Shown: piece by piece, positions 41,101 through 41,623 of the stretch
How the letters are laid out: each line of letters begins with the position of its first letter
How positions within the stretch are numbered: the stretch's first letter is position 1
DNA from: Escherichia coli
GTDB lineage: Bacteria; Pseudomonadota; Gammaproteobacteria; Enterobacterales; Enterobacteriaceae
NCBI RefSeq assembly: GCF_003334765.1
Contig: NZ_QOWT01000001.1
DNA length: 64,000 nucleotides
Reading direction: 5' to 3' (one strand)
Program-made: the position numbers and the translations under genes
Notes under the pieces: generated by a model
What the model was told of the DNA's origin: nothing
The model's database searches: none
What the model saw: only the letters and a program-made list of their open reading frames with translations

Positions 41101-41494
41101 AATCTGTTCGCCTTATATATATCTGGAGGTTTTGAGGATGATGATTAATTATTATCGCCAGAACGAAATGTGCACGAAAAATTGTTATAAGAATTGTGTC
41201 ACTTTTATCATTGTGATATGACCACTTCGTCATTAATCTCATGAGCGTTTAAAATACTACCGCCAAATCACGCAACGAACTTTGCTGGATTCAGTTTATG
41301 CTGCTGTAAATCCGCTCGCAGTAAACCTTTCAGACGCACCGTGATGTTATCAGTTGTTCTTTAAGCGTTTTGCTGGTGTACTCACTACAAACGAATTGCG
41401 AATCGAATCAATGTGAAACGGAAAGGTACAATCTCCCTTTTTTTAGTGTTAACATCGCTCAACCGGGTGGAAGGTGAGAGGTTAATGTCTTTCA

Positions 41495-41623
41495 TTTGTG
41501 TACCTGATTGCGAACCAATTTAGCATTTGTTGGCTAGATGGTTTCGCAATGAACTGTTAATAAACAAATTTTTCTTTGTATGTGATCTTTCGTGTGGGTC
41601 ACCACTGCAAATAAGGATATAAA
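41495..41623 (+). promoter_or_regulatory. thrS leader / translational operator (tRNA-Thr anticodon-arm mimic bound by ThrRS)
   Basis: Assigned from established thrS autoregulation; the structured leader lies directly upstream of the thrS ATG. Stem-loops not verified by folding. Confidence 0.55.

Follow-up and report, generated by a model that had tools for sequence, protein, structure and literature searches.

The threonyl-tRNA synthetase operator of Escherichia coli in a composite arpB-thrS spacer, and its overlap with a putative phage attachment site

The gene for threonyl-tRNA synthetase (ThrRS) of Escherichia coli, thrS, is preceded by the translational operator described by Springer, Romby, Moine, Ehresmann and colleagues, in which ThrRS binds two anticodon-like hairpins of the leader while domain 1 and the 3' portion of domain 3 are contacted by the ribosome (PMC11088916, PMC3858243, PMC7373986, PMC9976931). 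Here we analyze, in a stretch of 64,000 nucleotides of E. coli DNA (contig NZ_QOWT01000001.1; the window), the spacer between thrS and the divergent arpB (positions 41,101 to 41,623), a spacer that is 100% identical to strain K-12 MG1655, the strain of the operator work. The element in the window is therefore this same operator, with the four-domain layout, the CGU-like loop of domain 2, the second anticodon-like hairpin, the predicted split ribosome-binding site (RBS) and the UAAGGA Shine-Dalgarno (SD) sequence, and no difference from it was found. What is added is that domain 2 is kept across Enterobacterales, that the upstream half of the operator exists in two unrelated versions, and that the spacer is a composite of dispensable island DNA and thrS control DNA in which the operator hairpin doubles as a phage attachment site (attB), a reading that we hold, as a whole, to be highly probable. 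The operator as such had been correctly recognized in a first-pass annotation of the sequence and was already known; the composite spacer, the attachment-site overlay and the dimorphism of the leader had not been anticipated, and a limited literature search, which did not include the classical papers, gave no description of the overlay or the dimorphism.

Several described systems resemble parts of this arrangement. Binding of a protein to a substrate mimic in its own mRNA is also found in the yeast AspRS mRNA and in ribosomal protein leaders such as the L20 operator, located downstream in the same operon, with other proteins and other structures (PMC7373986, PMC9976931). In Bacillus subtilis, an RNA leader likewise makes thrS expression respond to tRNA-Thr, but the T-box involved senses uncharged tRNA directly and controls termination, and the window holds neither a T-box match nor a terminator. 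We know of no autoregulatory mimic of the AspRS or L20 type that doubles as a phage attachment site. Phages and islands do use attB sites in tRNA genes, with the anticodon loop as one sublocation, and phage 21 and e14 integrate in icd and provide a replacement end of the gene. At thrS, as in those cases, a tyrosine integrase appears to target a short conserved stem-loop-stem, the element carries a copy of the displaced host part, the essential function survives, and the phage site (attP) has putative arm-type repeats and an adjoining int gene. Unlike them, the target would be an mRNA operator that mimics a tRNA anticodon arm, neither a tRNA gene nor a coding sequence, and the part replaced would be the 5' control region, with promoter and half operator, and not the 3' end of a gene. 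Finally, the att repeats of the Salmonella wzy locus occupy the same chromosomal position as the site in the window (PMC12074656), which differs in being single and unoccupied and in having espL1 instead of wzy.

Folding of 41462-41640 gave a minimum free energy of -50.7 kcal/mol (z = -3.7) and three strong hairpins, and the published four-domain layout could be recovered on the sense strand of the 5' untranslated region, in a leader (41461-41623) that reaches the thrS ATG at 41624. The first-pass annotation had expected a tRNA-mimicking ThrRS operator in this proximal part of the spacer and had proposed to fold 41495-41630; that segment gave z = -3.9, with none of 200 shuffled sequences as stable, and contains an anticodon-arm-like hairpin with CGU in the loop. 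This is domain 2, with a 6-bp lower stem (41575-80/41606-11), an internal loop, a 7-bp upper stem (41582-88/41596-602) and a 7-nt loop, UUCGUGU (41589-95), in which C-33, G-32 and U-31 (41591-93) are at the anticodon positions and a U33-like U is present. Its last base, 41611, directly adjoins the SD. The hairpin of domain 4 (-17.4 kcal/mol, z = -4.5) has an 8-nt loop, AUUUGUUG (41525-41532), with an anticodon-like UGU at 41528-41530, and scores 74.5 bits under covariance model R2, described below. Between them, domain 3 is AU-rich and mostly unpaired in the predicted folds, with a 4-bp hairpin predicted inside, and upstream of domain 4 the leader begins with a hairpin (-15.0 kcal/mol, z = -4.0, 0/200 shuffles as stable) whose sequence is not conserved across genera.

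Domain 2 was aligned in the window and in the thrS loci of 80 other Enterobacterales species (L002-L081). The last 50 nt or so before the thrS ATG were alignable in all 81 sequences, with the SD conserved. Paired bases were found in 96% of the cells of the domain 2 stems and compensatory changes in 8 of the 13 pairs, a covariation score that none of 500 shuffled alignments reached, while controls slid along the alignment were only 33-49% paired. The sequence (C/U)GU is kept in the loop of all 81 sequences, and the CAC of the 3' side of the internal loop and the adjoining stem are invariant.

For the function of these domains the published work is accepted, ThrRS binding and its competition with the ribosome being taken over because the sequence is that of K-12. 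One truncated chain of E. coli ThrRS, common to four PDB entries, among them 1KOG, matches the ThrRS of the window; 1KOG is the complex of the enzyme with the domain 2 hairpin. According to a published description, domain 3 is the U-rich portion of an RBS in two parts that depends on protein S1, and the same SD was named there (PMC3858243). An extended -10 promoter would start a leader of around 163 nt in which the 5' hairpin is followed by domain 4, by domain 3 with its AU-rich sequence, by domain 2 and by the SD/AUG, with domains 2 and 4 each offering a loop like that of the tRNA-Thr anticodon (CGU and UGU, respectively). Dimeric ThrRS would bind both hairpins, in a symmetrical manner, when in excess over tRNA-Thr and, since the RBS formed by domain 3 and the SD is split by the domain 2 hairpin, the bound enzyme would exclude the 30S subunit and repress translation of its own mRNA until tRNA-Thr relieves the repression. 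Two mutations obtained by selection fall in this leader, their window positions having been derived from the statement that an insertion sequence, IS2, selected by avibactam lies 150 bp upstream of thrS and 374 bp upstream of arpB (PMC12323667). That insertion, at -150, corresponds to 41474 and so hits the 5' hairpin, a short way past the promoter, and the G>A change at genome position 1,802,589 selected with borrelidin (PMC13148393) becomes C-19>U at 41605, inside the invariant CAC.

The thrS promoter directly precedes the leader, within a block that hardly varies in E. coli, and is outside the AT-rich distal DNA. In K-12 it consists of a weak -35-like GGTACA region (41425-41432) and an extended -10, TGtTAACAT (41447-41455), that belongs to a block, GGTGCAATCTCCCTTTTTTTAGTGTTA(A/C)CAT, conserved in 14 leaders of the K-12 type (class A, see below), 12 of them from Enterobacteriaceae and, more weakly, two from Yersinia. 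In the alignment of these 14 species, conservation of the leader collapses straight after the -10. Transcription would thus start near 41461-41463 (-163/-161). This start agrees with a leader of about 162 nt, reportedly described by Mayaux in 1983 and Moine in 1988. Further upstream, 41358-41424 is also nearly invariant in E. coli, though it precedes the -35 and is mostly beyond the region alignable across genera; a short ATCAAT motif at 41408-41413, around -50 from the start, recurs in class A leaders. This segment may serve a transcription factor or act as an UP-like element, or it may belong to the outer end of the phage-arm homology described next.

A search with 41500-41626 in 5,426 complete E. 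coli genomes gave 74 extra match places, and in 74 of the genomes, a figure estimated from identity bands and place counts, only a copy 80-95% identical to this segment is found beside thrS. Strain 1296KP has a complete lambdoid prophage between espL1 and thrS, of 47,005 bp according to its junction coordinates. On the espL1 side, at the left junction (attL; L088 8238-8260), identity with K-12 runs up to and including 41595, the final base of the domain 2 loop, after which phage DNA begins, and a tyrosine integrase gene is located 180 bp beyond it. On the thrS side (attR; L087 6075-6097), the DNA in front of thrS is a copy, carried by the phage, of the promoter, the 5' hairpin, domain 4 and domain 3; this copy is 88.5% identical to K-12 from 41408 and fully identical from 41573. 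The core common to both junctions and to the empty site of the window is TCTTTGTATGTGATCTTTCGTGT, 23 bp in length (41573-41595). Strain FG92-1 (L090, 1-9138) carries a truncated copy of the same prophage, with J lacking its N-terminus and with int and attL gone; its native thrS leader has also gone and only the phage-derived one, 89.9% identical to K-12, remains, so that this strain is a natural case of leader replacement becoming fixed.

The same arrangement was found in a free phage. In Salmonella phage vB_SosS_Oslo, the attP (26060-26238), located 180 bp upstream of int, shows homology with K-12 over 41416-41593, is nearly the same as the Salmonella thrS leader and diverges exactly after the domain 2 loop. 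Its integrase, a phrog_1 match, shares 75% identity with that of the 1296KP prophage, the next relatives being at most 48% identical, and the class A model gives the phage copies of the leader 71-80 bits. Both Oslo and the 1296KP prophage have the repeat pair TGTGTACCA(A/G)ATTG(T/C)GTACCAA twice, once in the P arm, where it overlaps the 5' flank of domain 4, and once in the P' arm, just before int. These TGTGTACC repeats probably represent arm-type sites for integrase binding, in the classic arrangement. In the two loci shown to have phage DNA upstream, the P-arm pair has no mismatches, as is also the case in Sodalis dw_96; there are two mismatches in K-12 (TGTGTACC 41497-41504 and TGCGAACC 41509-41516) and six to nine in resident class A leaders that adjoin ydiY-yniD without an island (Lelliottia and others). 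Further lysogens are present among the representative genomes: Oslo-like umuDC cargo is directly upstream of the leader in Salmonella arizonae, and a tail-fibre gene is next to that of Atlantibacter subterranea.

Taken together, these junctions indicate that the window contains an unoccupied attB. Lambdoid phages with an Oslo-type tyrosine integrase would recombine at the 5' half and loop of domain 2 (41573-41595), with strand exchange presumably inside the 7-nt loop, and their P arm would provide the thrS promoter, domain 4 and domain 3 in working form, so that the upstream control region of the host is displaced by integration and that of the phage takes its place. As a side observation, the displaced native thrS promoter and leader at the 1296KP attL (L088 8064-8441) point into the phage int gene, 180 bp away, and the thrS-like promoter in the attP of free Oslo (L089 3001-3360) likewise points into int.

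The wzy (rfc) locus of S. Typhimurium, beside thrS, is flanked by direct repeats of 113 bp (attL/attR); it excises, circularises and can re-insert, and deletion of the thrS-side repeat, attR, causes a growth defect behind which the authors suspected the thrS promoter (PMC12074656). The excerpts of that report considered here name no recombinase and no known type of site, nor do they connect these repeats with a phage or with the hairpin of the thrS operator. Along both of its arms, the circular junction sequenced there (S2 File) has 81% identity with the Oslo attP (L089 2940-3420). The arm on the thrS side, a 99% match to a Salmonella fragment that spans wzy and thrS (L092 2126-2369), stops at -30 of thrS, and the junction lacks int and one arm repeat. 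The L092 fragment showed no direct repeats, its contig ending before attL. By its sequence, wzy appears to be the decayed remnant of an Oslo-like element in the attB of the thrS operator. The ydiY-thrS region was already known as an island site in Salmonella (PMC5122947), and in Photorhabdus and Xenorhabdus thrS is listed with the genes bordering plastic regions (PMC3091717).

Upstream of about -50, the 81 thrS leaders split into two non-homologous classes, which differ between approximately -130 and -60 (41494-41562 in the window). Class A, to which K-12 belongs, has a long hairpin with the 8-nt loop A(A/U)NNGU(U/G)G; in 28 such leaders, 7 of 10 consensus pairs showed compensatory changes and the GU of the loop was invariant, with UGU, CGU and GGU all occurring. 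Class B has a hairpin of 6-8 bp with the loop A-R-R-G-U-R-N-A, e.g. AGAGUGAA, enclosed in a covarying long-range helix, with 5 of 6 pairs compensatory and the GU invariant as well. The loop closing base is at -100 to -105 in both classes, the hairpin having been found by pattern search in 42 of the 81 sequences. Covariance models told the classes apart cleanly. The class B model (R1) matched 39 loci, from representative genomes of 39 of the 80 species sampled, and the class A model (R2) 32 loci and the window, never with more than one match per locus and model and always at the same distance from thrS; a single locus, that of Proteus penneri, matched both, class A weakly (E = 0.27), and ten matched neither (nine of Pantoea type and one of Tatumella). 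The class B hairpin is plausibly a functional analogue of domain 4; to our knowledge, ThrRS binding to a class B leader has never been tested. Rfam 15 has no family for either class, and related loci (L003, L004, L022 and L046 among them) give only Phe_leader.

Both classes occur within single genera, namely Atlantibacter, Superficieibacter, Phytobacter, Cedecea, Serratia and Escherichia. Ten pairings of a class A with a class B leader were compared, seven of which stay inside a named genus, and in all of them homology begins abruptly within some 20 nt of -50 (-72 to -46); A. subterranea and A. hermannii, for instance, are 98% identical from -50 on and unalignable upstream. Integration of phages at domain 2, each bringing its own leader arm, would account for two non-homologous leader types in such close relatives. 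Near the class B leader of Klebsiella oxytoca (L008 1-589), a umuC-like sequence 74% identical to an Oslo cargo gene was noticed 2.4 kb upstream, which is either a coincidence or a hint that class B leaders also adjoin related elements.

How the class A leader came to be in E. coli is a further question. Domain 2 may be the attB used by one lambdoid phage family, decayed descendants included, whose attP carries a replacement promoter and a class A domain 4 module with arm-type sites. The region from about 39089 to 41572, with espL1, the distal spacer, the promoter and domains 4 and 3, would then be the fossil right end of such an element, which replaced an ancestral class B leader; wzy would be a sister fossil, and repeated integration and decay would have left unrelated leaders upstream of -50. 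To this extended proposal we assign evenly balanced chances. The opposite course, in which the class A leader is the original chromosomal sequence and was copied by phages through aberrant excision, with no fossil arm in E. coli, is somewhat short of an even prospect in our judgement and a serious contender. It is in agreement with the presence of class A leaders directly adjoining ydiY-yniD, with no island, in Lelliottia, Enterobacter quasihormaechei and others, and with the fact that phage att arms are commonly built of captured host DNA; the window was also searched for a repeat of the att core, for a P' arm, for a class B remnant and for an int gene, and none was found, with only the homology on the yniD side extending, to 39088, which speaks against a fossil arm. 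On the other hand, an Escherichia lineage (L002) about 90% identical to K-12 in ydiY has a class B leader and no espL1, with thrS around 300 bp from yniD. Class A is, besides, the only leader type found in phages, a class B leader giving no match in 50,697 phage records; the arm-type repeats are perfect in lysogens and progressively decayed in resident leaders, K-12 included; and espL1 sits where lambdoid prophages carry cargo genes, just inside attR.

A different objection is that the duplicates flanking prophages and the two leader types could result from ordinary homologous recombination or gene transfer at an island hotspot, and not from a site-specific attB. Phage arm and host leader share around 190 bp at 78-89% identity, enough for some homologous exchange, and the wzy study, in the excerpts considered, could not decide between an integrase and RecA acting on its 113-bp identical repeats (PMC12074656). 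Against this, the E. coli prophage, the free Salmonella phage and the wzy element share a junction that coincides to the nucleotide, where the domain 2 loop ends; the tyrosine integrase gene is 180 bp from the core in both phages; direct repeats are present on both arms, as is typical of attP; and all ten class A versus B pairs lose their homology close to -50, with nothing alignable upstream. We therefore consider this explanation improbable. Together with the indecision of the wzy study, some other points weigh against the reading of the spacer as operator, island DNA and attB. ThrRS binding, ribosome exclusion and the transcription start rest on the literature and not on this analysis; a simple promoter scan, the check that the first-pass annotation had proposed, did not call the thrS promoter, because its -35 is weak, and picked up a distal plus-strand motif (41227-41255); the number of 74 genomes is an estimate, the junctions having been inspected in two E. 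coli lysogens; strain UTME-7 (L091) has two match places for 41500-41626 and yet a normal native thrS leader, its second copy not having been located; and the exact crossover point is deduced from junction sequences.

With respect to the rest of the spacer, the arpB (espL1 pseudogene) 5' open reading frame (ORF) has its ATG at 41100 on the minus strand and thrS its ATG at 41624 on the plus strand, so the distance of 523 bp given in the first-pass annotation is exact. A 701-bp query spanning it matched MG1655 at 100% and was found in all 5,426 E. coli genomes. The MG1655 RefSeq record shows espL1 (frameshifted, minus strand) and thrS (plus strand) on the flanks and no feature between. The distal part had been described as AT-rich, which applies to roughly the first 200 bp (GC 32-37%, 41100-41300) and not to 41250-41550 (GC 38-45%), and as devoid of accepted ORFs, as indeed none is annotated there in the 5,426 genomes, where this part is single-copy. 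A 36-aa ORF antisense to the leader (41385-41495) was rejected because it is stopped early in the Salmonella sequence, and the other spacer ORFs are annotated in none of these genomes.

The distal spacer (41101 to about 41407) had no homologue by blastn or tblastx in the 80 other Enterobacterales loci, nor outside E. coli when searched against plasmids, the "plasmid" matches being mislabelled pieces of chromosome; homology with S. arizonae and E. albertii starts only at 41408-41411 or thereabouts. Between phylogroups, in the comparison of K-12 with three distant E. coli strains, 41101-41357 diverges by 3.5-6.2%, similar to espL1 (2.4-5.2%), whereas 41358-41623 diverges by 0-1% and the third codon positions of thrS by 2.2-2.6%, which sets a switch from high to low diversity at around 41357. 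Likewise, the proximal 237 bp are at least 99% identical in 5,339 of the 5,426 genomes and the distal 310 bp in only 2,955. Insertion sequence IS1, with a 9-bp duplication at 41381-41389, interrupts the spacer in strains PSJ-07, VTB97584v and PF9285, and strain ET479 has an IS5-family element and a deletion from ydiY through 41356, reaching 41357; given that thrS is essential, these natural variants mean that the distal part is dispensable for it. This part is thus island DNA that came with espL1, evolves neutrally and is not needed for thrS, and it probably holds the 5' flank and promoter of espL1.

The first-pass annotation had suggested the distal part as the source of promoters for both genes. 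For thrS this does not hold, its promoter being at 41425-41455, and for arpB/espL1 there are only consensus picks from a study by systematic evolution of ligands by exponential enrichment (SELEX) with the RpoD holoenzyme, which reported a peak in the thrS/arpB spacer and listed candidate motifs for both genes (PMC3946193). The thrS pick, TCGTCA-17-TAAAAT, was located at 41227-41255 on the plus strand, and the arpB pick, ATGATG-16-TATAAC, at 41211 to 41184 on the minus strand, where the window has ATGATA, one mismatch; both are consensus matches beneath one broad binding peak and candidate promoters only. That 41101-41407 carries an element of its own relevant to thrS, such as a second promoter at 41227-41255, a small RNA or a small protein, could be argued from the in vitro binding of the holoenzyme, from the coincidence of the authors' thrS pick with our scan, and from espL1 being intact in O157:H7, so that its promoter must be in the distal part in some strains. 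We find it unlikely, since this DNA keeps pace with the espL1 pseudogene in its divergence, is missing from all other genera compared, is severed from an essential gene or deleted in the strains mentioned, and has no annotated feature and no excess RNA structure on either strand (z = +0.5 and +0.75 for the distal 360 nt); the SELEX peak, in turn, cannot be separated from the known promoter. Weakest of all, the notion that the leader acts by transcription attenuation or as a T-box, as in thrS of B. subtilis, and not by translational repression, is refuted at the sequence level and has a negligible probability: a promoter and terminator scan gave no terminator-like site in 40900-41800, no leader peptide is present, an Rfam search of the window found no T-box, thrS-leader or other family up to E = 10 beyond a chance snoU13 match (E = 0.32), and the domain 2 hairpin abuts the SD, as expected for control by ribosome competition.

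Table 1. Positions of the features discussed in the arpB-thrS spacer and the thrS start (window coordinates).
Feature	Coordinates	Strand	Remarks
Distal spacer	41101..41407		E. coli-specific DNA travelling with the espL1/arpB island
Back-to-back promoter-like consensus matches	41184..41255		Candidate motifs from the SELEX study
thrS promoter	41425..41455	+	Conserved block, extended -10
Leader 5'-terminal hairpin	41464..41506	+	Predicted fold
Putative relic arm-type repeats	41497..41516	+	TGTGTACC 41497-41504, degenerate TGCGAACC 41509-41516
Operator domain 4 hairpin	41508..41549	+	Predicted fold, covariation, covariance model R2
Operator domain 3, AU-rich linker UGAACUGUUAAUAAACAAAUUUUUC	41550..41574	+	Predicted upstream half of the split RBS
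Putative unoccupied attB core TCTTTGTATGTGATCTTTCGTGT	41573..41595		5' strand and loop of domain 2; Oslo-like tyrosine integrases
Operator domain 2, tRNA-Thr anticodon-arm mimic	41575..41611	+	Fold, covariation
Operator domain 1	41612..41626	+	SD UAAGGA 41612-41617, AUG 41624-41626; read from sequence

Some features of the neighbourhood may be recorded here. In the window, arpB consists of two ORFs (39201-40616 and 40627-41100), as expected of the K-12 pseudogene; the intact espL1 referred to above is that of O157:H7 strain TW14359, and UTME-7 has an IS1 in the start region of the gene. The first expectation that yniD would be inside the spacer was ruled out, as it is found at 38922-39029, on the far side of arpB. 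Downstream, infC starts at 43556 with its known unusual ATT codon.

The feature flagged in the first place is textbook translational autoregulation by mimicry, and its confirmation adds nothing new. The relevance of the locus would reside in the use of a tRNA-like mRNA operator as a phage attachment site, by which the phage must bring along a promoter and half an operator for the regulation of an essential synthetase gene, and which connects mimicry by RNA with the preference for tRNA-shaped DNA that integrases are known to have. One of two interchangeable modules would make up the upstream half of this model operator, and alignments A1, A3 and A5, along with models R1 and R2, could seed an Rfam family for the operator. 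The host range of these phages would depend on a 23-bp operator core conserved across Enterobacterales. The site would also provide a concrete origin for the ydiY-thrS island hotspot, with espL1 in E. coli and lpxR-wzy in Salmonella, and, as an Oslo-like attachment site in domain 2, would explain the excisable Salmonella wzy locus and thus the recently reported reversible excision of wzy, which alters phage sensitivity.

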